Source of the DNA: Escherichia phage vB_EcoM_SHAK7163
Length of the DNA stretch: 44,656 nucleotides
Strand: one strand, 5' to 3'
Sequence record: OR594179
A model generated the notes under the pieces. That model searched no databases, was not told the DNA's origin, and worked only from the letters and a program-made list of their open reading frames with translations. Made by a program: the position numbers and the translations under genes. Of the stretch, positions 1 through 44,656 are shown piece by piece; position 1 is the first letter of the stretch; each line of letters opens with the position of its first letter.

Positions 1-332
1 CCTAGGTTATAGCTTAGTAGACTACCTAGGTTGTACTTAGTTGGGTGGCTTAGTAACAGCTTAGTAATGTACCTTAGTTAGTCTTAGTGTCAGACCTCAG
101 TGATTGCACATGCAAGCATGTAAGATGCTAATAGGTCGCGGTCGGTAGACCGCTAAGAAGAAGTAATAGTAATAAGATGCAGTAGGAGGAACACCAGAAA
201 CCTAGCCAACCTAGCCTATCCTAGCTCTGTATCTCTTGCTTCTTCCTTAGTCTCACATGTTAGACAACCTAGGTTTACCTTAGTAGTTGTGACATGTATC
301 ACATAAATAATCTATCTTAGTGAAACTTAGTG

Positions 333-361
333 TTGACACAGGCAATCAACAAGTATACATT
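333..361 (+). promoter_or_regulatory. candidate host sigma70-type early promoter (TTGACA-N17-TACATT)
   Basis: TTGACA at 333-338, 17-bp spacer, TACATT at 356-361, upstream of the first early ORFs; T7-like phages start infection from host-RNAP promoters at the left end. Confidence 0.4.
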
Positions 362-510
362 AGCAATCACTGAGACGGACCTAGCAAGCTGTCTCAGGTT
401 ATAAGCAGGAGAATTGATGCGTAAGCCATAGCTAGTGGATGTAGTCGCATGAAGGCTTGAGTAAGGGCCGTTTAATACCTTCTTCCTCTGGAGACAACGC
501 TTATAACACC

Positions 511-526
511 GCTCTTTAACAATCTG
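511..526 (+). repeat. conserved early-intergenic motif GCTCTTTAACAATCTG, copy 1 of 4 (candidate RNase III processing site)
   Basis: Near-identical 16-17 nt motif present once in each of four consecutive early intergenic regions, each flanked by complementary arms. Confidence 0.4.
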
Positions 527-581
527 CTTAGTGTAACCTATGTATGCCGTGGTTAATTACTTATTGAATGAGGTATTAACT

Positions 582-3633: not shown

Positions 3634-6261
3634 ATGCAAGACCTACACGCTATTCAACTTCAACTTGAAGAAGAAATGTTTAACGGCGGTATCCGTCGCT
3701 TTGAAGCGGACCAACAACGCCAGATTGCATCCGGTAATGAATCAGACACGGCATGGAATCGCCGCTTATTGTCCGAACTAATCGCACCTATGGCGGAAGG
3801 TATTCAGGCTTACAAGGAAGAATACGAAGGCAAGAGAGGTCGTGCACCACGTGCATTAGCTTTCATTAACTGCGTAGGAAACGAAGTGGCAGCATATATC
3901 ACCATGAAAATCGTTATGGATATGCTGAACACAGACGTTACCTTACAAGCAATCGCTATGAATGTAGCGGACCGCATCGAAGACCAAGTACGTTTTAGCA
4001 AGCTGGAAGGTCACGCAGCTAAGTACTTTGAGAAAGTGAAGAAGTCACTTAAGGCTAGCAAGACTAAATCTTATCGTCATGCGCACAACGTAGCGGTAGT
4101 AGCTGAGAAATCTGTTGCTGACCGTGACGCGGATTTCTCCCGTTGGGAGGCATGGCCTAAAGACACCTTGCTGCAAATCGGTATGACCTTGCTCGAAATA
4201 TTGGAGAATAGTGTATTCTTCAATGGTCAACCTGTCTTCCTTCGTACCTTGCGCACTAACGGCGGAAAGCATGGTGTTTACTATTTACAGACCAGTGAAC
4301 ATGTTGGAGAGTGGATAACTGCATTTAAGGAACATGTAGCGCAGCTCAGCCCTGCCTATGCACCTTGCGTTATACCTCCCCGCCCTTGGGTATCACCTTT
4401 TAACGGTGGGTTTCATACTGAGAAAGTAGCAAGCCGTATTCGTCTGGTAAAAGGCAATCGTGAGCACGTCCGCAAGCTGACCAAAAAGCAAATGCCAGCC
4501 GTTTATAAGGCTGTTAACGCTTTGCAGGCAACGAAGTGGCAGGTTAATAAAGAGGTTTTACAGGTTGTGGAGGACGTTATACGTCTAGACCTCGGCTATG
4601 GTGTGCCTTCCTTTAAACCACTCATCGACCGTGAGAACAAGCCAGCTAATCCAGTGCCGTTAGAGTTCCAGCACCTGCGAGGCCGTGAACTTAAAGAGAT
4701 GCTAACGCCGGAACAATGGCAAGCCTTCATCAACTGGAAAGGCGAATGTACCAAGCTGTATACCGCTGAAACTAAGCGCGGCAGCAAATCGGCGGCGACC
4801 GTCCGCATGGTTGGGCAGGCACGTAAATACAGCCAGTTTGACGCCATCTACTTCGTGTATGCACTGGACAGCCGCAGCCGCGTCTACGCGCAATCTAGCA
4901 CGCTCTCTCCGCAATCAAACGACTTAGGCAAGGCATTGCTCCGTTTTACCGAAGGGCAGCGCCTTGATAGCGCTGAGGCGCTTAAATGGTTTTTGGTGAA
5001 CGGGGCTAATAACTGGGGTTGGGATAAGAAAACTTTTGACGTGCGCACCGCTAACGTGATGGATAGTGAATTTCAAGACATGTGCCGTGACATTGCAGCG
5101 GATCCGCTAACCTTCACTCAATGGGTAAATGCCGACTCCCCTTACGGCTTCCTTGCATGGTGCTTTGAATATGCGCGTTATCTGGATGCACTGGATGAAG
5201 GCACGCAAGACCAATTCATGACGCACCTCCCAGTCCATCAAGATGGTAGTTGTTCTGGTATACAGCACTACAGTGCTATGCTACGCGATGCAGTAGGTGC
5301 GAAAGCGGTAAACCTTAAGCCCTCTGACTCTCCTCAAGATATTTATGGTGCCGTTGCGCAGGTAGTAATTCAGAAGAATTATGCATACATGAATGCAGAG
5401 GATGCGGAAACCTTCACTTCTGGCAGCGTGACTTTAACAGGTGCGGAACTGCGTAGTATGGCTAGTGCGTGGGATATGATAGGAATCACTCGCGGCCTAA
5501 CCAAAAAGCCCGTAATGACACTACCTTATGGCAGCACACGTCTAACCTGCCGTGAGTCAGTGATTGATTATATCGTTGATTTAGAAGAAAAAGAGGCCCA
5601 ACGGGCTATTGCGGAAGGGCGTACCGCCAATCCTGTACACCCTTTTGATAATGACCGTAAAGACAGCCTTACACCTAGCGCAGCTTATAACTATATGACA
5701 GCTTTAATCTGGCCTTCTATTTCGGAAGTGGTTAAAGCTCCTATAGTGGCAATGAAAATGATTCGTCAGCTTGCCCGTTTCGCAGCTAAAAGGAATGAAG
5801 GCTTAGAGTATACCCTGCCTACTGGCTTCATCTTGCAACAAAAGATTATGGCTACTGATATGCTCCGCGTATCTACTTGCTTGATGGGAGAAATCAAGAT
5901 GAGTCTACAGATTGAAACGGACGTAGTAGATGAAACGGCAATGATGGGCGCTGCTGCTCCTAACTTTGTGCATGGTCATGATGCCAGCCACCTTATCTTA
6001 ACAGTCTGCGACCTTGTTGATAAAGGGATTACATCTATCGCAGTTATTCATGATTCTTTTGGCACTCATGCAGGCCGTACAGCCGACCTTCGTGATAGCT
6101 TAAGGGCAGAAATGGTGAAGATGTATCAAGGCCGTAATGCACTGCAAAGCCTGCTAGATGAGCACGAAGAACGCTGGTTAGTTGATACCGGAATACAAGT
6201 ACCAGAGCAAGGGGAGTTTGACCTTAACGAAATCTTAGTTTCAGACTATTGCTTCGCATAA
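3634..6261 (+). CDS. T7-type single-subunit DNA-dependent RNA polymerase
   Basis: 875 aa; motifs [43 protein letters not shown] and C-terminal ...SDYCFA closely match remembered T7 RNAP ([22 protein letters not shown], ...FAFA). Confidence 0.97.
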
Positions 6262-10255: not shown

Positions 10256-10460
10256 ATTAAGCAAGGTTTGCTCTTGCGGTAAAGGTTATCGCAGTCGTAT
10301 TGATGGTAAGTGTGGGCATTGCAGGTCTAAGAAAGAGGCTGCTTTGTTTGATAAGTACCACAATGAATTAGCATATAACTATCCTCATCTAACACCTAAT
10401 TCTTTATTAGGACTTGGTTATAGGGTTAAATACTTTGGAGCAATCTATGAAATCAATTGA
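10242..10460 (+). CDS. hypothetical zinc-ribbon-like protein (72 aa)
   Basis: ATG after AGAGG; CSCG...CGHC cysteine pairs. Confidence 0.45.
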   Translation: MKTIKLSKVCSCGKGYRSRIDGKCGHCRSKKEAALFDKYHNELAYNYPHLTPNSLLGLGYRVKYFGAIYEIN

Positions 10461-12993
10461 TTGGAAGAAGGAGGCAGAAGGTCGTATCCTCGTGATGGAT
10501 GCGGAAGCTAAAGGACTCCTTGACGCTATCCGATATGGACACCGTGAAGATGTGCATATCATTTGCTGCATGGACTTGCTTACTACCGAGGAGTTTCTCT
10601 TCTTTGACCCGTATGAGATGCGTGACCCTGAAGCAAGAGAACGCCTGAAGGAATGGGAAGGTCATCAAGATGGTGACTTGGTTGATGGTGTTAACTTCCT
10701 GAAGCACTGTGAGGCTATTGTGTCGCAGAACTTCCTAGGGTATGACGGTCTTCTCTTTGAGAAAGCATTTCCTGATATATGGAAAGGCTTTAATTACACA
10801 GAGAAGCGTGGCAAGGGCAGGCTCCGTGCCGACCTGTGTCCTGTGCGAGTCATGGACACGCTGGTGATGAGCCGCCTGTTAAACCCTGATAGACGCCTCC
10901 CTCCGCAAGCATATGCCAAAGGCATGGGTAACGTCGCCCCTCACTCAATTGAGGCGCACGGCATCCGTATAGGCCGCTATAAGCCGGAGAATGAGGATTG
11001 GTCTAAACTAACTGATCACATGGTTCACCGTGTACGTGAGGACGTGGCGATTGGTCGTGACCTGTTCCTCTGGCTCTTTAACGGGGAATGGATGGAGCAC
11101 AAACGCCGTGGAGTGAACAAACGTACTGGCCTAGGGATTGAGACAGCCTTCCACATGGAGTCCATTGTGGCGCTGGAGATGAGCCGTCAGGCAGAGCGTG
11201 GATTCCGTCTGGATATCGACAAGGCGTTAGCACGATGCGAGGAATTGGACGCTAAGATTGATGAGACAGTCGCAGCGTTCCGTCCGCACATGCCTATGCG
11301 TATCAAGTCTAAACCTTTTAAACCGGAAGAAAAGAATGAAGTATGCCAACGCGCAAATGAGTATGGAGCTAGCAACAATATACCTACTGTCCTTGACCCC
11401 TCTCACTTTCTTCACGCAGAGAGACGAGGAGATCGCAAGACAGTATGGAGTGTCACTACTAAGTCTGGTGATTGGTCGGCTAGCGTCAAGAAAGACTTTC
11501 CTCACCTTAGAGGAAACCGTAATGACACGCCAAGTATCAAGTGGATTGGCGCTTACTCGCCTGTTACTTTCGAAGAGATTCCCTTGGGTAACAGGGATAC
11601 AGTTAAGCAAGTGCTCTATGATTATGGATGGAAGGGTGTTGAATTTAATGATACCGAGCAAGCGCATCTCGATGAGTATGGAGTGTTACCCAAGCCTTGG
11701 AGTGGGAAGATAAATGAAAAGTCCCTTACTTTATGGCAAGAGAGAGCCGCACGTGAAGGTAAAACAGTCCCTGATTGGTGCTTGGGTATCGCTGCATGGT
11801 ACATACTCGTATCCCGTCGTGGTCAGATCCTCAACCGTGGTGACGTTGAAGCCTTCGACCAGAAGGGGGTGTGGCCTTCGCAAGCTGGTATACGAAAGTG
11901 TCGCGGCCTTGTACCTGTAGCATTTAACAAGGAGTTAGGAATCAATGCGCAGCAATACTACGAAAGGTACGGATGCTGGCCTACGTCAGACAAGGATGAC
12001 GGAGAATGGCGTGTGCCAGCTATTGCTATTAGTATTGGAACTTCTACGTTCCGTATGCGTCATCGTAACGTGGTTAATATTCCTGCCCGTGGTTTGTATC
12101 CTTTACGTGATTTATTCATAGCCGGTAAAGGTAAGCTAATCCTTGGTTGTGATGGTGCTGGTCTTGAACTACGTGTACTGTCTCACTTCATGAATGACCC
12201 TGAATATCAAGATATTGTACTGCATGGTGACATTCACACCCATAATCAAATGAAGGCTGGTCTTCCTAAGCGTGACATGGCGAAGACATTTATATATGCC
12301 TTCCTATATGGGTCTGGTATAGCTAACCTTGCAGCAGTATGTGGTGTTACTGAGGAAGAAATGGAGGAAGTTGTGGCAAGATTTGAGGTTGAACTACCAT
12401 CTCTTGCACGCCTTCGTGAGAATGTTATCGCACAAGGTAACAAGTTTGGCTACCTACAAGCACCTGATGGTCATTGGGGTCGCATCCGTATGTCTGGTGG
12501 TGAACTTAAAGAGCACACTATGCTTAACGTACTACTCCAGATGACTGGTTCTCTGTGTATGAAATACGCATTGGTCAGAGCGTTTGCAGTGATGCGCAAG
12601 GAAGGTGTGGCCTTAGATAGTATGGGAAACCCTTGCGGTATAGCTAACGTGCACGATGAAATCCAGATGGAAGTCCCTGAAGATGAGGTCTTGTATCTCA
12701 ACTACGACTTGCCTTTCACCTTAGAAGGGTTCGAAACAGAGAAGGCTGCTGTGAAAGCAGTGTTCGATGCAGAGGAGAAACGTGTTCATGTGGATTCTGA
12801 AGGACGTATGTGGTCTGCTGCAAATCTCGTTAGCGTTGATGCTGATGCTGGTGTACTTCATTGCCAGCGTCGTTATCACCGTGCAGGGCATATCATTGCC
12901 GATGCAATGACTTGGGCTGGTCATTATTTGAAGATGCGTTGTCCGATGGCAGGTGAGTATAAGATTGGTGCAAGCTGGAAGGAAACACACTGA
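10447..12993 (+). CDS. DNA polymerase, family A, with 3'-5' exonuclease domain
   Basis: 849 aa from ATG with GGAG SD (track ORF begins at TTG 10414); exo motif ILVMDAEAKGL; pol motifs GCDGAGLELRVLSHF, KTFIYAFLYGSG, VHDEIQMEV. Confidence 0.93.
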   Translation: MKSIDWKKEAEGRILVMDAEAKGLLDAIRYGHREDVHIICCMDLLTTEEFLFFDPYEMRDPEARERLKEWEGHQDGDLVDGVNFLKHCEAIVSQNFLGYDGLLFEKAFPDIWKGFNYTEKRGKGRLRADLCPVRVMDTLVMSRLLNPDRRLPPQAYAKGMGNVAPHSIEAHGIRIGRYKPENEDWSKLTDHMVHRVREDVAIGRDLFLWLFNGEWMEHKRRGVNKRTGLGIETAFHMESIVALEMSRQAERGFRLDIDKALARCEELDAKIDETVAAFRPHMPMRIKSKPFKPEEKNEVCQRANEYGASNNIPTVLDPSHFLHAERRGDRKTVWSVTTKSGDWSASVKKDFPHLRGNRNDTPSIKWIGAYSPVTFEEIPLGNRDTVKQVLYDYGWKGVEFNDTEQAHLDEYGVLPKPWSGKINEKSLTLWQERAAREGKTVPDWCLGIAAWYILVSRRGQILNRGDVEAFDQKGVWPSQAGIRKCRGLVPVAFNKELGINAQQYYERYGCWPTSDKDDGEWRVPAIAISIGTSTFRMRHRNVVNIPARGLYPLRDLFIAGKGKLILGCDGAGLELRVLSHFMNDPEYQDIVLHGDIHTHNQMKAGLPKRDMAKTFIYAFLYGSGIANLAAVCGVTEEEMEEVVARFEVELPSLARLRENVIAQGNKFGYLQAPDGHWGRIRMSGGELKEHTMLNVLLQMTGSLCMKYALVRAFAVMRKEGVALDSMGNPCGIANVHDEIQMEVPEDEVLYLNYDLPFTLEGFETEKAAVKAVFDAEEKRVHVDSEGRMWSAANLVSVDADAGVLHCQRRYHRAGHIIADAMTWAGHYLKMRCPMAGEYKIGASWKETH

Positions 12994-13746: not shown

Positions 13747-14046
13747 ATGATGGAAGAAGTGATTCAAGCTAAACATGTAGGTATCATCTTTCGTGATCTA
13801 GAGCAGCGTAAAGTTGCAGGTCACACTCGTCTGGCTAAAGAAGACGATACAGCAATCACTACTGTGGAACAAGCAGATGCCTATCGTGGTCCAGAGTTTA
13901 CTCAAGGTGAAACTTGTCATCAATTGAGCCTTTCACTTTGTGACACTATGGCTAGTGTAAATGTACAAGAGGTTGAAGATGGTGAATGTGTTAGTTATGT
14001 CTACCCTCTCGATACTATTGCACGTATTAAGGTAGTTCATAAGTAA
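13747..14046 (+). CDS. hypothetical protein (99 aa)
   Basis: ORF with AAGGGG upstream. Confidence 0.5.
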   Translation: MMEEVIQAKHVGIIFRDLEQRKVAGHTRLAKEDDTAITTVEQADAYRGPEFTQGETCHQLSLSLCDTMASVNVQEVEDGECVSYVYPLDTIARIKVVHK

Positions 14047-35939: not shown

Positions 35940-36134
35940 ATGATTAACTCCGAACTGGTAGATAGTGGTGTGAAGCTGGCGCCACCTGCATTAGTATCAG
36001 GTGGGTACTTCCTCGGTATCAGTTGGGATAATTGGGTGTTAATAGCAACATTCATTTATACCGTGTTGCAAATTGGAGACTGGTTTTATACCAAGATTAA
36101 ACTATGGAGGAGGAGCCGTGAGCGTACACAATAA
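35940..36134 (+). CDS. holin (T7 gp17.5-like)
   Basis: 64 aa; one TM; NWVLIATFIYTVLQIGDWFYTKIKLW resembles remembered T7 gp17.5 (EWFYVAAIAYTVVQIGAKVVDKMIDW); SD GGAGG. Confidence 0.75.
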   Translation: MINSELVDSGVKLAPPALVSGGYFLGISWDNWVLIATFIYTVLQIGDWFYTKIKLWRRSRERTQ

Positions 36135-36417
36135 ACATGCAGCTACGGAAGACGAGGTTGGCATTCTACATGGTGCTATTACCAAAATCTTTAATAAGAA
36201 AGCACAGGCAATACTGGACACTATAGAAGAAGACCCAGATGCAGCACTGCATTTAGTCTCTGGTAAAGACATTGGGGCTATGTGTAAGTGGGTTCTTGAT
36301 AATGGTATTACCGCTACACCCGCTGCACAGCAGGAGGAGTCCAAGCTATCTAAGCGCCTCAAGGCTATCCGAGAGGCATCAAGTGGCAAGATCATCCAAT
36401 TCACTAAGGAGGATTGA
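36118..36417 (+). CDS. putative terminase small subunit (gp18 position)
   Basis: GTG start 5 nt after GGAGGAGG (track ORF begins at upstream ATG 36073); located immediately before the large terminase gene. Confidence 0.5.
   Translation: MSVHNKHAATEDEVGILHGAITKIFNKKAQAILDTIEEDPDAALHLVSGKDIGAMCKWVLDNGITATPAAQQEESKLSKRLKAIREASSGKIIQFTKED
36209..36231 (+). promoter_or_regulatory. phage promoter-like sequence inside small-terminase coding region
   Basis: CAATACTGGACACTATAGAAGAA; core conserved, -17..-14 diverged; encodes ...ILDTIEE... Confidence 0.45.
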
Positions 36418-38312
36418 TGGCTAAGGCAAGAGAATCACAAGCGGAGGCTCTTGCCAGATGGGAGATGCTACAGGAGTTACAGCAGACTTTTCCGTATACG
36501 GCGGAAGGTTTGCTTCTCTTTGCAGATACAGTTATCCATAACTTGATTGCAGGCAACCCTCATCTGATTCGTATGCAGGCCGATATTTTAAAGTTTCTAT
36601 TCTATGGACATAAATATCGCCTCATCGAAGCGCCCCGTGGTATCGCTAAGACAACACTATCAGCAATCTATACGGTATTCCGTATTATTCATGAACCGCA
36701 TAAGCGTATCATGGTTGTGTCCCAAAACGCCAAGCGAGCAGAGGAAATCGCAGGCTGGGTAGTTAAAATCTTCCGTGGCTTAGACTTTCTTGAGTTTATG
36801 CTGCCGGATATCTACGCTGGGGACCGTGCATCCGTTAAGGCGTTTGAGATTCATTACACCCTACGTGGTAGTGATAAGTCTCCTTCTGTATCCTGTTACT
36901 CAATCGAAGCAGGTATGCAGGGTGCTCGTGCTGATATTATTCTAGCAGATGACGTAGAATCGATGCAGAATGCTCGTACAGCGGCAGGACGTGCCTTGCT
37001 TGAGGAACTGACCAAGGAGTTTGAATCTATTAACCAGTTTGGTGATATTATCTACCTTGGTACTCCTCAGAACGTAAACTCTATCTACAATAACCTACCT
37101 GCACGTGGTTACTCTGTTCGTATCTGGACTGCACGTTATCCCTCAGTGGAGCAGGAGCAATGCTATGGTGACTTCCTTGCACCTATGATTGTGCAGGATA
37201 TGAAGGACAACCCAGCACTTCGCTCAGGGTATGGCTTGGATGGCAATAGTGGTGCCCCTTGTGCACCTGAAATGTATGATGATGATGTGCTGATTGAGAA
37301 GGAAATCTCGCAGGGTGCGGCTAAGTTCCAGCTTCAGTTTATGCTTAACACTCGCATGATGGATGCTGACCGCTATCCGCTACGCCTGAACAACCTCATC
37401 TTCACTTCATTCGGTACAGAGGAAGTCCCTGTGATGCCTACATGGAGCAACGACTCTATTAACATCATTGGCGATGCACCGAAGTATGGCAATAAGCCTA
37501 CAGACTTTATGTATCGCCCTGTGGCCCGACCTTATGAGTGGGGCGCTGTTACCCGTAAGATTATGTATATTGACCCAGCGGGTGGCGGTAAGAACGGGGA
37601 CGAAACAGGCGTATCGATTGTCTTCCTGCACGGCACATTCATTTACGTGTACCAGTGCTTCGGTGTGCCAGGTGGATACCGAGAATCGTCCCTGAATCGC
37701 ATTGTGCAGGCCGCAAAGCAGGCAGGTGTTAAAGAGGTATTCATTGAGAAGAACTTTGGTCATGGCGCGTTTGAGGCCGTTATAAAGCCATACTTTGAAC
37801 GAGAGTGGCCTGTGACTCTGGAGGAAGATTACGCCACCGGACAGAAAGAGTTGCGTATCATTGAAACACTAGAGCCACTAATGGCGGCCCACAGGCTCAT
37901 CTTCAACGCAGAGATGGTCAAGTCTGATTTTGAGTCGGTACAGCACTATCCGCTTGAACTACGCATGTCATACAGCCTTTTCAATCAAATGTCGAACATC
38001 ACGATTGAGAAGAACAGCCTACGACACGATGACCGCTTAGACGCTCTGTATGGCGCTATACGGCAATTAACTTCTCAAATAGACTATGACGAGGTTACAC
38101 GGATTAATCGCCTCAGAGCGCAGGAGATGCGCGATTACATCCATGCTATGAACACACCTCACCTCCGTAGGGCAATGCTCTATGGAGATTATGGCACTGA
38201 GCGAAGAGTAACCAACACTTCCGTGGCTATGCAGCAAAGAGTATACGGTCAGAATTACAGGAGTAAATCGGCAAGCAGAAATACACTTTCTGCAAGGATT
38301 TCAAGGATTTAG
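36417..38312 (+). CDS. terminase large subunit (gp19-like)
   Basis: 631 aa from ATG overlapping upstream stop; Walker A-like EAPRGIAKTT; position. Confidence 0.9.
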   Translation: MAKARESQAEALARWEMLQELQQTFPYTAEGLLLFADTVIHNLIAGNPHLIRMQADILKFLFYGHKYRLIEAPRGIAKTTLSAIYTVFRIIHEPHKRIMVVSQNAKRAEEIAGWVVKIFRGLDFLEFMLPDIYAGDRASVKAFEIHYTLRGSDKSPSVSCYSIEAGMQGARADIILADDVESMQNARTAAGRALLEELTKEFESINQFGDIIYLGTPQNVNSIYNNLPARGYSVRIWTARYPSVEQEQCYGDFLAPMIVQDMKDNPALRSGYGLDGNSGAPCAPEMYDDDVLIEKEISQGAAKFQLQFMLNTRMMDADRYPLRLNNLIFTSFGTEEVPVMPTWSNDSINIIGDAPKYGNKPTDFMYRPVARPYEWGAVTRKIMYIDPAGGGKNGDETGVSIVFLHGTFIYVYQCFGVPGGYRESSLNRIVQAAKQAGVKEVFIEKNFGHGAFEAVIKPYFEREWPVTLEEDYATGQKELRIIETLEPLMAAHRLIFNAEMVKSDFESVQHYPLELRMSYSLFNQMSNITIEKNSLRHDDRLDALYGAIRQLTSQIDYDEVTRINRLRAQEMRDYIHAMNTPHLRRAMLYGDYGTERRVTNTSVAMQQRVYGQNYRSKSASRNTLSARISRI

Positions 38313-41172: not shown

Positions 41173-43608
41173 ATGATTCAAAGACTAGGTTCTTCATTAG
41201 TTAAATTCAAGAGTAAAATAGCAGGTGCAATCTGGCGTAACTTGGATGACAAGCTCACCGAGGTTGTATCGCTTAAAGATTTTGGAGCCAAAGGTGATGG
41301 TAAGACAAACGACCAAGATGCAGTAAATGCAGCGATGGCTTCAGGTAAGAGGATTGACGGTGCTGGTGCTACTTACAAAGTAACATCTTTACCTGATATG
41401 GAGCGATTCTATAATACCCGCTTCGTATGGGAACGTTTAGCAGGTCAACCTCTTTACTATGTGAGTAAAGGTTTTATCAATGGTGAACTATATAAAATCA
41501 CGGACAACCCTTATTACAATGCTTGGCCTCAAGACAAAGCGTTTGTATATGAGAATGTGATATATGCACCCTACATGGGTAGCGACCGTCATGGTGTTAG
41601 TCGTCTGCATGTATCATGGGTTAAGTCTGGTGACGATGGTCAAACATGGTCTACACCAGAGTGGTTAACTGATCTGCATCCAGATTACCCTACAGTGAAC
41701 TATCATTGTATGAGTATGGGTGTATGTCGCAACCGTCTGTTTGCCATGATTGAAACACGTACTTTAGCCAAGAACGAACTAACCAATTGTGCATTGTGGG
41801 ATCGCCCTATGTCTCGTAGTCTGCATCTTACTGGTGGTATCACTAAGGCTGCAAATCAGAGATATGCAACAATCCATGTACCAGATCACGGACTATTCGT
41901 GGGCGATTTTGTTAACTTCTCTAATTCTGCGGTAACAGGTGTATCAGGTGATATGACTGTTGCAACGGTAATAGATAAGGACAACTTCACGGTTCTTACA
42001 CCTAACCAGCAAACTTCAGATTTGAATAACGATGGAAAGAGTTGGCACATGGGTACTTCTTTCCATAAGTCTCCATGGCGTAAGACAGATCTTGGTCTAA
42101 TCCCTCGTGTCACAGAGGTGCATAGCTTTGCTACTATTGATAACAATGGCTTTGTTATGGGTTATCATCAAGGTGATGTAGCTCCACGAGAAGTTGGTCT
42201 TTTCTACTTCCCTGATGCTTTCAATAGCCCATCTAATTATGTTCGTCGTCAGATACCATCTGAGTATGAACCAGATGCGGCAGAGCCGTGCATCAAGTAC
42301 TATGACGGTGTATTATACCTTATCACTCGTGGCACTCGTGGTGACAGACTTGGAAGCTCTTTGCATCGTAGTAGAGATATAGGTCAGACTTGGGAGTCAC
42401 TGAGATTTCCACATAATGTTCATCATACTACCTTACCTTTTGCTAAAGTAGGAGATGACCTTATTATGTTTGGTTCAGAACGTGCAGAAAATGAATGGGA
42501 AGCAGGTGCACCAGATGATCGTTACAAGGCATCTTATCCTCGTACCTTCTATGCACGATTGAATGTAAACAATTGGAATGCAGATGATATTGAATGGGTT
42601 AACATCACAGACCAAATCTATCAAGGTGACATTGTGAACTCTAGTGTAGGTGTAGGTTCTGTTGTAGTTAAAGACAGCTACATTTACTATATCTTTGGTG
42701 GAGAAAACCATTTCAACCCAATGACTTATGGTGACAACAAAGATAAAGACCCATTTAAAGGTCATGGACACCCTACTGATATATACTGCTATAAGATGCA
42801 GATTGCAAACGACACTCGTGTATCTCGTAAGTTCACATATGGTGCAACACCTGGTCAGGCCATCCCTACTTTTATGGGTACTGATGGTGTACGAGATATT
42901 CCTGCACCTTTGTACTTCTCAAATGACATCACTACCGAGGATGCTAAAGTTGGACACTTGACTCTCAGAGCAACTACCAGTTCCAACATTAGGTCTGAAG
43001 TGCAGATGGAAGGTGAGTACGGCTTTATTGCTAAGGCTGTTCCAAAGACTAACCCATCAGGTCAACGTTTACTTCTTTGTGGTGGAGAAGGGACTTCATC
43101 TTCCACAGGTGCACAGATAACGTTGCATGGCGCTAATTCAAGTAATGCTAAGCGTATCACTTATAACGGAAGTGAGCACCTATTCCAAGGTGCACCAATC
43201 ATGCCTGCTGTAGATAACCAGTTTGCTGCTGGCGGACCTAGTAACCGATTCACTACTATCTACTTAGGTAGTGACCCTGTTACCACTTCCGATGCTGACC
43301 ATAAGTATGGTATCTCTGGTATTGACACCAAGGTATTAAAGGCTTGGAGTCGTGTTGGCTTCAAACAGTACGGTCTGAATAGTGAAGCAGAGAGGAACCT
43401 TGATAGCATACACTTCGGTGTCTTGGCTCAGGATATTGTAGCTGCTTTTGAAGCTGAAGGGTTGGATGCCATTAAGTATGGAATTGTGTCCTTCGAAGAA
43501 GGTAGATACGGTGTGAGATACAGTGAAGTTCTAACCCTAGAGGCTGCCTATACTCGCCATCGTCTTGATAAATTAGAGGAGATGTATACCACTAATAGAA
43601 TCAGTTAA
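41173..43608 (+). CDS. tailspike: sialidase-like (endosialidase-type) capsule depolymerase with C-terminal autoproteolytic chaperone domain
   Basis: 811 aa; SD AAAGGAGG; N-terminal DFGAKGDGKTND; two Asp-box/BNR motifs SGDDGQTW (41626-41649) and SRDIGQTW (42370-42393); S-D-x-x-x-K autocleavage-type motif TSDADHK at 43288-43305. Confidence 0.85.
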   Translation: MIQRLGSSLVKFKSKIAGAIWRNLDDKLTEVVSLKDFGAKGDGKTNDQDAVNAAMASGKRIDGAGATYKVTSLPDMERFYNTRFVWERLAGQPLYYVSKGFINGELYKITDNPYYNAWPQDKAFVYENVIYAPYMGSDRHGVSRLHVSWVKSGDDGQTWSTPEWLTDLHPDYPTVNYHCMSMGVCRNRLFAMIETRTLAKNELTNCALWDRPMSRSLHLTGGITKAANQRYATIHVPDHGLFVGDFVNFSNSAVTGVSGDMTVATVIDKDNFTVLTPNQQTSDLNNDGKSWHMGTSFHKSPWRKTDLGLIPRVTEVHSFATIDNNGFVMGYHQGDVAPREVGLFYFPDAFNSPSNYVRRQIPSEYEPDAAEPCIKYYDGVLYLITRGTRGDRLGSSLHRSRDIGQTWESLRFPHNVHHTTLPFAKVGDDLIMFGSERAENEWEAGAPDDRYKASYPRTFYARLNVNNWNADDIEWVNITDQIYQGDIVNSSVGVGSVVVKDSYIYYIFGGENHFNPMTYGDNKDKDPFKGHGHPTDIYCYKMQIANDTRVSRKFTYGATPGQAIPTFMGTDGVRDIPAPLYFSNDITTEDAKVGHLTLRATTSSNIRSEVQMEGEYGFIAKAVPKTNPSGQRLLLCGGEGTSSSTGAQITLHGANSSNAKRITYNGSEHLFQGAPIMPAVDNQFAAGGPSNRFTTIYLGSDPVTTSDADHKYGISGIDTKVLKAWSRVGFKQYGLNSEAERNLDSIHFGVLAQDIVAAFEAEGLDAIKYGIVSFEEGRYGVRYSEVLTLEAAYTRHRLDKLEEMYTTNRIS

Positions 43609-43806
43609 GCAATCTGCTGTACGCCAGAACACAGAAGAGCTTATTCAATCATGACGTGACCCTAAGCAAGCCTATGCGATTGCCAAGGATGTACAACGTC
43701 GTACCATGAAGAAACCTTCTGCATCTTCTGCGTAAGCAGGTTAATATCTTAGTGTACACAAGGGCAGACCTAGGTTTGCTCTTAGTGTATTTACAATGGA
43801 GGTCTT

Positions 43807-43887
43807 ATGTATATACCTATGGAAGCAATAGTAGGTGGCCTATGCTTGTTGATAGGTTTCGTTATAGGCTTAATAGCAAACCCTTAG
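43807..43887 (+). CDS. possible tiny hydrophobic peptide (26 aa)
   Basis: Strong SD GGAGG 5 nt before ATG; MYIPMEAIVGGLCLLIGFVIGLIANP; very short, unverified. Confidence 0.2.
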   Translation: MYIPMEAIVGGLCLLIGFVIGLIANP

Positions 43888-43942
43888 TCCTGTACAAGGA
43901 TTAACCAAAGTCAAAATTTTGATATAGGCGTGTGTCAGCTCT

Positions 43943-44252
43943 CTCGCCCTCGCCCTCGCCGGGTTGCCCCCCCCCCCCATAGGGTGGCCTGAGGGAATCC
44001 GTCTTCGACGGGCAGGGCTGATGTACTCCTTGTACTAGCTTAGTAGTACACAAGGGCTGGCCGTACTAGTTAGCTGGTACAGCCTAGTCTTTGCTCATGT
44101 ACTAGCAAGGTGGAACGCGGTAGACGGCCTAGGACAGCCTAGGAATGGCTTAGTGGTGGACAAGGTGATTACCTTAGTGAAGCCTCTTAGTGCATTCCTG
44201 AGGCCATTCAGGGCGTTTATGAGGGATTGACAGGGTGGGTGTGGGTGGGCTA
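43943..44252. repeat. 310-bp unit, copy 1 of exact tandem duplication (probable terminal repeat, right-end copy)
   Basis: 43943-44252 is identical base-for-base to 44253-44562; flanking bases differ immediately on both sides. Confidence 0.9.
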
Positions 44253-44562
44253 CTCGCCCTCGCCCTCGCCGGGTTGCCCCCCCCCCCCATAGGGTGGCCT
44301 GAGGGAATCCGTCTTCGACGGGCAGGGCTGATGTACTCCTTGTACTAGCTTAGTAGTACACAAGGGCTGGCCGTACTAGTTAGCTGGTACAGCCTAGTCT
44401 TTGCTCATGTACTAGCAAGGTGGAACGCGGTAGACGGCCTAGGACAGCCTAGGAATGGCTTAGTGGTGGACAAGGTGATTACCTTAGTGAAGCCTCTTAG
44501 TGCATTCCTGAGGCCATTCAGGGCGTTTATGAGGGATTGACAGGGTGGGTGTGGGTGGGCTA
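44253..44562. repeat. 310-bp unit, copy 2 of exact tandem duplication (probable terminal repeat, left-end copy)
   Basis: Identical to 43943-44252; contains C12 tract, (CTCGCC)3 and G-tract cluster GGGTGGGTGTGGGTGGG. Confidence 0.9.
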
Positions 44563-44656
44563 TCTGTTCGTTTCGCTACGCTTCACTCACTGCTCCTCAC
44601 TTCGTTCGTCGCTGCGGCAGCTTGATGTGTACCTTAAGTTATTCCTTGATGGATAG

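Follow-up and report, generated by a model that had tools for sequence, protein, structure and literature searches.

An exact 310-bp tandem duplication in a Vectrevirus genome record very probably represents its two direct terminal repeats placed side by side

The phages K1-5 (AY370674), K1E (AM084415) and VEc3 (MG251390) have linear genome records with exact repeats of 234 bp, 288 bp and 304 bp, respectively, at both ends, and the record of vB_Ro_P3a (PQ197423), although flagged circular, likewise carries an exact repeat of 283 bp at each end. The repeat of vB_Ro_P3a is annotated as a repeat_region and that of Mt1B1_P10 as a 'direct terminal repeat' (DTR). SP6 (NC_004831), a Zindervirus of the same subfamily that infects Salmonella, has a repeat of 174 bp, while the repeats of T7 (NC_001604) and T3 are 160 bp and 231 bp long. 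The genome ends of K1-5, K1E and SP6 were reportedly determined experimentally, by Scholl and colleagues in 2004, Stummeyer and colleagues in 2006 and Dobbins and colleagues in 2004, respectively.

Direct terminal repeats arise from extension synthesis at staggered nicks (PMC5557969). In concatemers, as well as in collapsed circular assemblies, each junction contains a single copy of the repeat (PMC5000459), the second one being produced in the course of packaging (PMC5000459; PMC5557969). Read assemblers collapse the repeat and begin the contig at an arbitrary base, while PhageTerm outputs genomes 'completed with repeats' (PMC5557969). PhageTerm and PAUSE recognise a repeat of this kind by a doubled read depth across it and by read starts and ends that accumulate at its borders. 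The heptamer ATCTGTT has been described in the literature as the strictly conserved core of the class II pause and termination signals for T7 RNA polymerase, and the T7 concatemer junction has one such signal, AUCUGUU in the transcript, at its right end.

The current study concerns a duplication in a 44,656-bp stretch of DNA, all of which was analysed and which is referred to below as the window. Positions 43943-44252 were identical, base-for-base, to positions 44253-44562 by direct reading, by string comparison and by Tandem Repeats Finder, which reported 43943-44562 with a period of 310, 2.0 copies, 100% matches, 0 indels and a score of 1240. The flanks of the pair differed immediately on both sides, with T at 43942 compared to A at 44252, and C at 44253 compared to T at 44563. 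The identity of the two copies and the abrupt divergence of their flanks, both claimed in an earlier note on this DNA, were thus borne out. There was no third copy of the unit in the window and string comparison found none of its 15-mers elsewhere in it. An exact match of 310 nt cannot be a chance event. The G+C content of the unit was 57%, as compared to 45% for the window. A terminal repeat is recognised as an exactly duplicated sequence with two copies per genome, which is what the 44,656-bp window sequence contained. The duplication has the following parts.

43943..44252, plus strand: copy 1 of the unit, the putative right-end direct terminal repeat of the linear virion genome, identical to copy 2 and preceded by the conserved right-arm flank GGCGTGTGTCAGCTCT
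44253..44562, plus strand: copy 2 of the unit, the putative left-end direct terminal repeat, which aligns over its full length to the left ends of K1-5, K1E and VEc3
44247..44258, no strand assigned: head-to-tail joint GGGCTA/CTCGCC (the slash marks the joint), the putative right physical end set against the left physical end, occurring once in the window
43922..43942, plus strand: unique flank ATATAGGCGTGTGTCAGCTCT, directly to the left of the right-end repeat, conserved in K1-5, K1E, VEc3, SP6 and the IMG/VR relatives

The first 25 kb of the window was 96.5% identical to T145P2, 94.3% identical to K1E and 95.4% identical to K1-5, over 91-97% of its length, and the terminal region matched 116 phage records, nearly all of them K1E/K1-5/SP6-like. 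Pfam matches, all of which exceeded the gathering scores, identified an RNA polymerase, both subunits of a terminase, a DNA polymerase and an endosialidase.

3634..6261, plus strand: single-subunit phage RNA polymerase (Pfam RNA_pol, E 3.9e-90; RPOL_N, E 3.6e-31)
10414-12993: family A DNA polymerase (Pfam)
36073-36417, plus strand: terminase small subunit (Pfam DNA_Packaging_2, E 5e-16)
36414-38312, plus strand: terminase large subunit (Pfam Terminase-T7_RNaseH-like, E 5.5e-35)
41173-43608: K1 endosialidase tailspike, as in K1E gp47 (Pfam)

The nucleotide identity and the Pfam gene set together indicate that the window is the complete genome of a K1-capsule-specific Vectrevirus (Autographiviridae, Molineuxvirinae); membership of the genus is defined by high identity to, and colinearity with, the type members, and both were found in the first 25 kb and in the terminal region. 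Moreover, the Pfam matches showed that terminase subunits of the T7 type and a single-subunit RNA polymerase are present, the enzymes that mark the DTR class and that the genome has in common with the T7 group.

From a comparison of the unit with the whole window and with OZ035747.1 (8300-9500; L168), the genome appeared to be a mosaic, in that its backbone was closest to T145P2 and K1E while its terminal repeat was closest to VEc3 and K1-5. T145P2 and K1E carry another type of repeat, with CCCC(C)ATATGGGG and a different middle, and the last 80 nt of the unit were only approximately 79% identical to T145P2 and 78% identical to a K1E record. Between the tailspike gene and the right-end repeat, where K1-5 has the small genes 48 and 49, there was an open reading frame for a strongly hydrophobic peptide of 26 aa, MYIPMEAIVGGLCLLIGFVIGLIANP (43807-43887, plus strand), and upstream of it a GC-poor stem-loop followed by T-rich sequence (43760-43783).

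The 310-bp unit aligned from its first to its last base with the terminal repeats of K1-5, K1E, VEc3 and vB_Ro_P3a. Its left border was within ±2 nt of the DTR borders in these four phages and its right border coincided with theirs exactly, while agreement of the right border with SP6, T3 and T7 was within 1 nt. The left ends read CTCGCCCTCGCC in the window, VEc3 and vB_Ro_P3a, TCGCCCTCGCC in K1-5 and TCTCGCCCTCGCC in K1E, so that the starting points vary by 1-2 nt, TCTCGCC in K1E, CTCGCC in VEc3, vB_Ro_P3a and the window, and TCGCC in K1-5. Since the left starts of the relatives differ, the exact left end of the unit is certain only to ±2 nt. The left ends of SP6, T3 and T7 read TCTC, with SP6 beginning 3 nt further out than the unit. 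The right ends of the window, VEc3, vB_Ro_P3a, K1-5 and K1E all read ...GTGGGCTA. The borders of the unit therefore coincide with the terminal signals of the group, (T)CTC on the left and ATCTGTT on the right.

VEc3 had the closest repeat to the unit in both sequence and length. The unit and the repeats of VEc3, K1-5, K1E and vB_Ro_P3a have in common 1) the CTCGCC x3 left end, 2) a C-run-ATA(T)-G-run that begins at base 25-27, 3) internal CCTAGG/CTTAGT repeats, 4) the right end TTGACAGGGTG...GTGGGCTA, 5) ATCTGTT at the right border and 6) the same unique flanks on both sides. They differ in that the records of the four relatives have one copy of the repeat at each end, whereas in the window both copies are adjacent and internal. 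There were also differences within the repeat: a run of twelve C in the window, compared to TC4 in VEc3, K1-5, K1E and vB_Ro_P3a, accounted for most of the 6-nt excess over VEc3, approximately 70 nt of the middle was absent from K1-5, and K1E had a different middle and CCCCATATGGGG. In SP6 the left end carries TCTCTCGGCCTCGGCCTCGCCGG, CCCCATAGGG lies at base 29, the right end reads CTTGACAGCGTG...GTGGGCTA, ATCTGTT begins at base 174, and the right-arm flank, GGCGTGTGTCAGC, is the one present in the window, but the SP6 repeat is 136 nt shorter than the unit because the middle is almost entirely missing.

An alignment of 14 repeats, which took in six IMG/VR relatives and SP6, had near-invariant ends and an indel-rich middle, and it is the middle that accounts for a range in repeat length of 174-310 bp. 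The contention that a repeat of 310 bp would be longer than the T7 repeat of about 160 bp was correct as far as T7 is concerned, but the length is unremarkable in the genus, where the relatives have repeats of 234-304 bp. Judged from the alignment, 310 bp is at the top of the normal length range for the group and is no anomaly.

When the last 404 bases of the window were concatenated with its first 100 bases, the resulting sequence gave an unbroken alignment to the left ends of K1-5, K1E and VEc3. Since in three linear relatives the sequence at the end of the window runs colinearly into that at its start, the window is a circular permutation with an offset of 404 nt (44253 to 44656), which is less than 1% of the genome, and this colinearity across the wrap point also means that the window's own ends are not physical ends. 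The sequence TCTGTTCGTTTCGC, directly after copy 2, is the conserved start of the unique left arm, and GGCGTGTGTCAGCTCT is the right-arm flank that precedes the right-end repeat in K1-5, K1E, VEc3 and SP6 as well. The earlier note had placed the genome ends at 44252/44253 and the permutation at about 400 bp; the latter figure is 404 nt by colinearity with the linear relatives, and the former position is supported by the borders of the unit, which fall on the DTR borders of the relatives. We infer the positions of the physical ends in this isolate from this homology, and base 1 of the genome is proposed to be at 44253 (±2 nt).

The most conserved block at the left end was CTCGCC x3, which was almost invariant in the 14 sequences; SP6 has CTCGGCCTCGGCCTCGCC, with two substitutions. 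It was followed by a C-run-ATA-G-run, and a second conserved block ended the repeat.

43943..43960, and again 44253-44270, plus strand: hexamer CTCGCC three times in tandem, left terminus of the repeat (14-sequence alignment)
43967..43984, and again 44277-44294, plus strand: C12-ATA-GGG element, a small hairpin-type inverted repeat (pattern scan)
44537..44562, also 44227-44252, plus strand: right-terminal conserved block TTGACAGGGTGGGTGTGGGTGGGCTA (14-sequence alignment)

The C12-ATA-GGG element, CCCCCCCCCCCCATAGGG, was present at both 43967-43984 and 44277-44294. A likeness of this motif to one in the T7 terminal repeat, pointed out in the earlier note, proved to be real, in that the T7 repeat holds GTTCCCCCATAGGGGGTACC at bases 23-40 and CCCCCATAGGGGG at bases 26-38. 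Counted from the left end, a C-run-ATA(T)-G-run begins at base 25-29 in T7 (CCCCCATAGGGGG), SP6, K1-5, K1E, VEc3 and the window, while the pattern scan gave none in the T3 repeat. The C-run was C12 in both copies of the unit (43967-43978 and 44277-44288), as compared to C4 in most relatives, C5 in one (L020) and C6 in another (L079). It was the sole homopolymer of at least 7 nt in the 44.6-kb window, and the long C-run version of the left end had no match in the IMG/VR or GTDB genomes. The C12 run could reflect real slippage in a hypervariable tract or it could be a sequencing or polishing error. Since it is common to both copies, it is uninformative as to how the second copy arose. An IMG/VR copy of Escherichia phage LL11 (L077) had a G-rich expansion, GGGGGAGGGGGGGGGGAGGGG, at approximately 13930-13960, immediately preceding GTGGGCT-ATCTGTT, in a place occupied by about 10 nt in other phages, which indicates that homopolymer expansions recur in the terminal repeats of Vectrevirus.

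At the right end, TTGACAG...GTGGGCT was kept in all 14 of the aligned repeats, including SP6, and a comparison by eye indicated that the right end of T7 is arranged similarly, as CTTGAGTG...GTCCCT. A perfect TTGACA (44227-44232 and 44537-44542) was present in every aligned repeat, SP6 among them, 17-18 nt upstream of CTATCTG. There was no good -10 element after this conserved TTGACA and the promoter scan made no call there. A 2026 preprint reported that the T7 concatemer junction works as an E. coli promoter by means of an extended -10 motif. From the T7 sequence, we take this motif to be TGTTACAGT, which is not conserved in the window, where the sequence is TGTTCGTTT.

The heptamer ATCTGTT lies across the right border of the left-end repeat, and arrays of a short direct repeat, CTTAGT, lie on both sides of the pair.

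44562..44568, plus strand: ATCTGTT, class II pause/termination signal, across the right border of the left-end repeat, at which it also lies in six reference phages
13..532, plus strand: array of the short direct repeat CTTAGT in 11 copies, unique left arm, a little inward of the repeat
43748..43888, plus strand: CTTAGT in three copies, located upstream of the repeat in the unique right arm

The polymerases of the SP6 group would be expected to recognise ATCTGTT as a class II signal and to pause there. The heptamer starts at base 161 in T7 (repeat length 160), 232 in T3 (231), 174 in SP6 (174), 234 in K1-5 (234), 288 in K1E (288) and 304 in VEc3 (304), so that its start is at the repeat length plus 0 or 1 in each of the six reference phages as well as in the window. 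There were only two copies on the plus strand of the window and six on both strands, with 7.6 expected, i.e. no over-representation. Since the count was below expectation, it is the position at the border in seven phages, and not the presence of the heptamer, that constitutes the evidence. In the case of CTTAGT, 22 of the 31 plus-strand copies fell within 43748-44501 and 13-532, and the total count was above that in every shuffle. The clustered copies were all in one orientation and were accompanied by several CCTAGG sites. T7 has 11 copies of CTAAAG in its first 600 bases, and the CTTAGT arrays around the repeat resemble these arrays at the T7 left end.

The coding content of the unit consisted of short low-complexity open reading frames of at most 50 aa, none of them credible. 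No Rfam family was found anywhere in the window. A promoter and terminator scan of 43500-44656 gave nothing inside the unit, and its counts were not above the shuffled expectation; one sigma-70-like site and one terminator-like site were found, both upstream of the unit. The inverted repeats in the unit were weak. A hidden gene or RNA in the unit was ruled out by these scans. Just inside the left end there were sigma-70 promoter-like sites at 333-361 and 289-318 on the plus strand and at 93-66 on the minus strand. The best of them, TTGACA-17-TACATT with 10 of 12 matches, is, by analogy, probably an early host-polymerase promoter like T7 A1, and the site at 93-66, which points leftward, is reminiscent of the T7/T3 promoter A0.

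The two-copy joint was sought elsewhere with a probe of 160 nt across GGGCTA/CTCGCC. No contiguous joint was found with this probe in 50,697 phage records. In all 37 of the related records that covered at least 80% of the probe, the two halves were one repeat-length apart, as the ends of a single copy would be. Several of these records had internal single copies, and one copy was directly confirmed in T145P2. A degenerate pattern for the joint had no match in IMG/VR, while in metagenomes it had 84 matches, none of which was related to the unit by BLAST; these are chance matches of a short GC-rich pattern. One record did contain the joint across its origin. PQ197423.1 (Raoultella phage vB_Ro_P3a; L008 and L167), which is flagged circular and has its exact 283-bp repeat at both record ends, reads GGGCTA/CTCGCC where the ends meet, the same twelve bases as in the window at 44247-44258. 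The combination of a circular flag with two terminal repeats is likely an annotation inconsistency, and the record is a precedent for the two-copy joint that rotating a finished sequence would produce.

The earlier note had attributed the tandem to a circularised assembly or a concatemer-derived contig. This part of its account needs correction, as such junctions contain one copy of the repeat (PMC5000459), and none of the 37 related records had the two halves of the probe contiguous. Since both concatemers and collapsed assemblies have one copy per junction, two adjacent copies point instead to in-silico joining and rotation, or to an artefact in which the ends were joined to one another. By comparison with the relatives, the unit is very probably the short exact DTR of a K1E/K1-5-like Vectrevirus of the SP6 group, the tandem having resulted when the finished linear genome was closed and then reopened 404 nt to the right of its left end. 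We infer that the joint originated in silico. On this same account the tandem would, in all probability, be a matter of representation and not a molecule made by the phage.

The virion would then contain a linear genome of 44,656 bp with one 310-bp copy at each end, base 1 being at about 44253 and the last base at 44252, and the non-redundant length would be 44,346 bp. By analogy with the T7 group, replication and recombination through the repeats would generate head-to-tail concatemers in which adjacent genome units are separated by one copy of the repeat. The phage RNA polymerase (3634-6261) is the enzyme expected to pause at the ATCTGTT on the right border of the concatemer copy, and the T7-type terminase (36073-38312), both subunits of which are encoded, is expected to cut at both borders of the repeat. 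DNA synthesis would duplicate the repeat, so that each packaged genome regains a copy at each end. CTCGCC x3, the C-run-ATA-G-run, TTGACAG...GGGCTA, ATCTGTT and the CTTAGT arrays are likely candidates for the recognition and processing signals.

T7 and T3 have the same architecture as the window and likely the same mechanism. Both phages have exact short DTRs with TCTC at the left end. T7 also has a C-run-ATA-G-run approximately 25 nt from the left end, as in the window, while none was detected in T3. ATCTGTT begins one base after the repeat in T7 and T3, whereas in the window it begins on the last base of the repeat. There are short direct-repeat arrays in and beside the repeat in both T7 and the window, made up of CTAAAG in the former and CTTAGT in the latter. 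However, T7 and T3 have no overall nucleotide similarity to the window beyond the short motifs, and the repeated heptamer differs.

Other explanations for the two adjacent copies place the joint in the laboratory or in an unrelated error. The virion ends may have been physically joined, for example through blunt-end ligation as the library was prepared or within long reads that were chimeric, and both copies then kept by the assembler in a circular contig. The DNA ends of the T7 group are expected to be blunt duplex, which would give exactly such a joint, and GGGCTA/CTCGCC is precisely the right end followed by the left end as deposited for VEc3 and vB_Ro_P3a. Nevertheless, no such joint was present in the related assemblies of the three collections, dozens of which were assembled from reads, and assemblers normally collapse an exact repeat of 310 bp (PMC5557969), which leaves this explanation improbable. 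If it were true, the history of the file alone would change and the repeat would still mark the true ends. An assembly or editing error that has nothing to do with the genome ends, for instance a mis-joined overlap of contig ends, is scarcely credible. Overlap artefacts are common at the ends of circular contigs and the duplication is 100-700 nt from the end of the window, but assembler overlaps occupy the two ends of a contig rather than an internal tandem, and their length is set by the k-mer or read length, whereas here both borders are the conserved DTR borders of seven reference phages. An assembly overlap of the CheckV type was rejected on the same grounds, as such overlaps are found at contig ends and lack biological borders.

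An in-silico joint and a real tandem have the same sequence, so the duplication could also be genuine, either as a true terminal repeat of 620 bp in a virion genome of approximately 45,276 bp or as an internal duplication in a genome whose ends are located elsewhere. On its outer sides the pair has the flanks of a natural concatemer junction, GTGTGTCAGCTCT to the left and ATCTGTT to the right, and cutting directed by these outer flanks would yield a 620-bp repeat. A virion genome of 45.3 kb would be within the range of the relatives (K1E, 45,251 bp; PDP21P3, 45,588 bp), and the length of the DTR is plastic in the genus (174-310 bp). However, the length variation in the relatives consists of indels in the middle of the repeat and not duplication of the whole unit, an exact 310-bp tandem would soon be lost through homologous recombination, and no such duplication was present in the relatives in any of the collections searched. 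Moreover, the borders match the repeat borders of the relatives, exactly on the right and to ±2 nt on the left, for which a random duplication has no reason, and ends located elsewhere are contradicted by the conserved terminal signals. A genuine duplication of either kind is thus quite unlikely, and its specific form, a real two-copy concatemer junction with a 620-bp repeat at each virion end, must be considered more unlikely still. Such a tandem could have originated when two mature genomes were joined end-to-end, as the phage encodes a DNA ligase, and were then packaged from the outer borders. If real, it would be a natural experiment on what directs the terminase to cut, the outer flanks or the repeat itself. 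In a lesser variant, the C12 run in the hairpin-like element would be a genuine hypervariable tract that tunes packaging.

On the preferred reading, in which a finished linear genome was closed and reopened, the unit belongs to a known class of elements, in a genus that is likewise known, and is displayed in an unusual way, that is, already-known biology combined with an artefact of representation. Since one copy of the repeat is all that a concatemer junction contains, it would be wrong to interpret the two-copy joint as such a junction. For annotation, the true ends would be at approximately 44252/44253 and the non-redundant genome would be 44,346 bp long, so the record should open at 44253, with its topology given as linear and a 310-bp repeat marked at either end. 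What looks like a 'tandem duplication' in a phage contig can be no more than two terminal repeats side by side. TCTC, the C-run-ATA-G-run and ATCTGTT at the right border, each already described for T7 and its relatives, make up a conserved set of genome-end elements that extends from T7 to the SP6 group.
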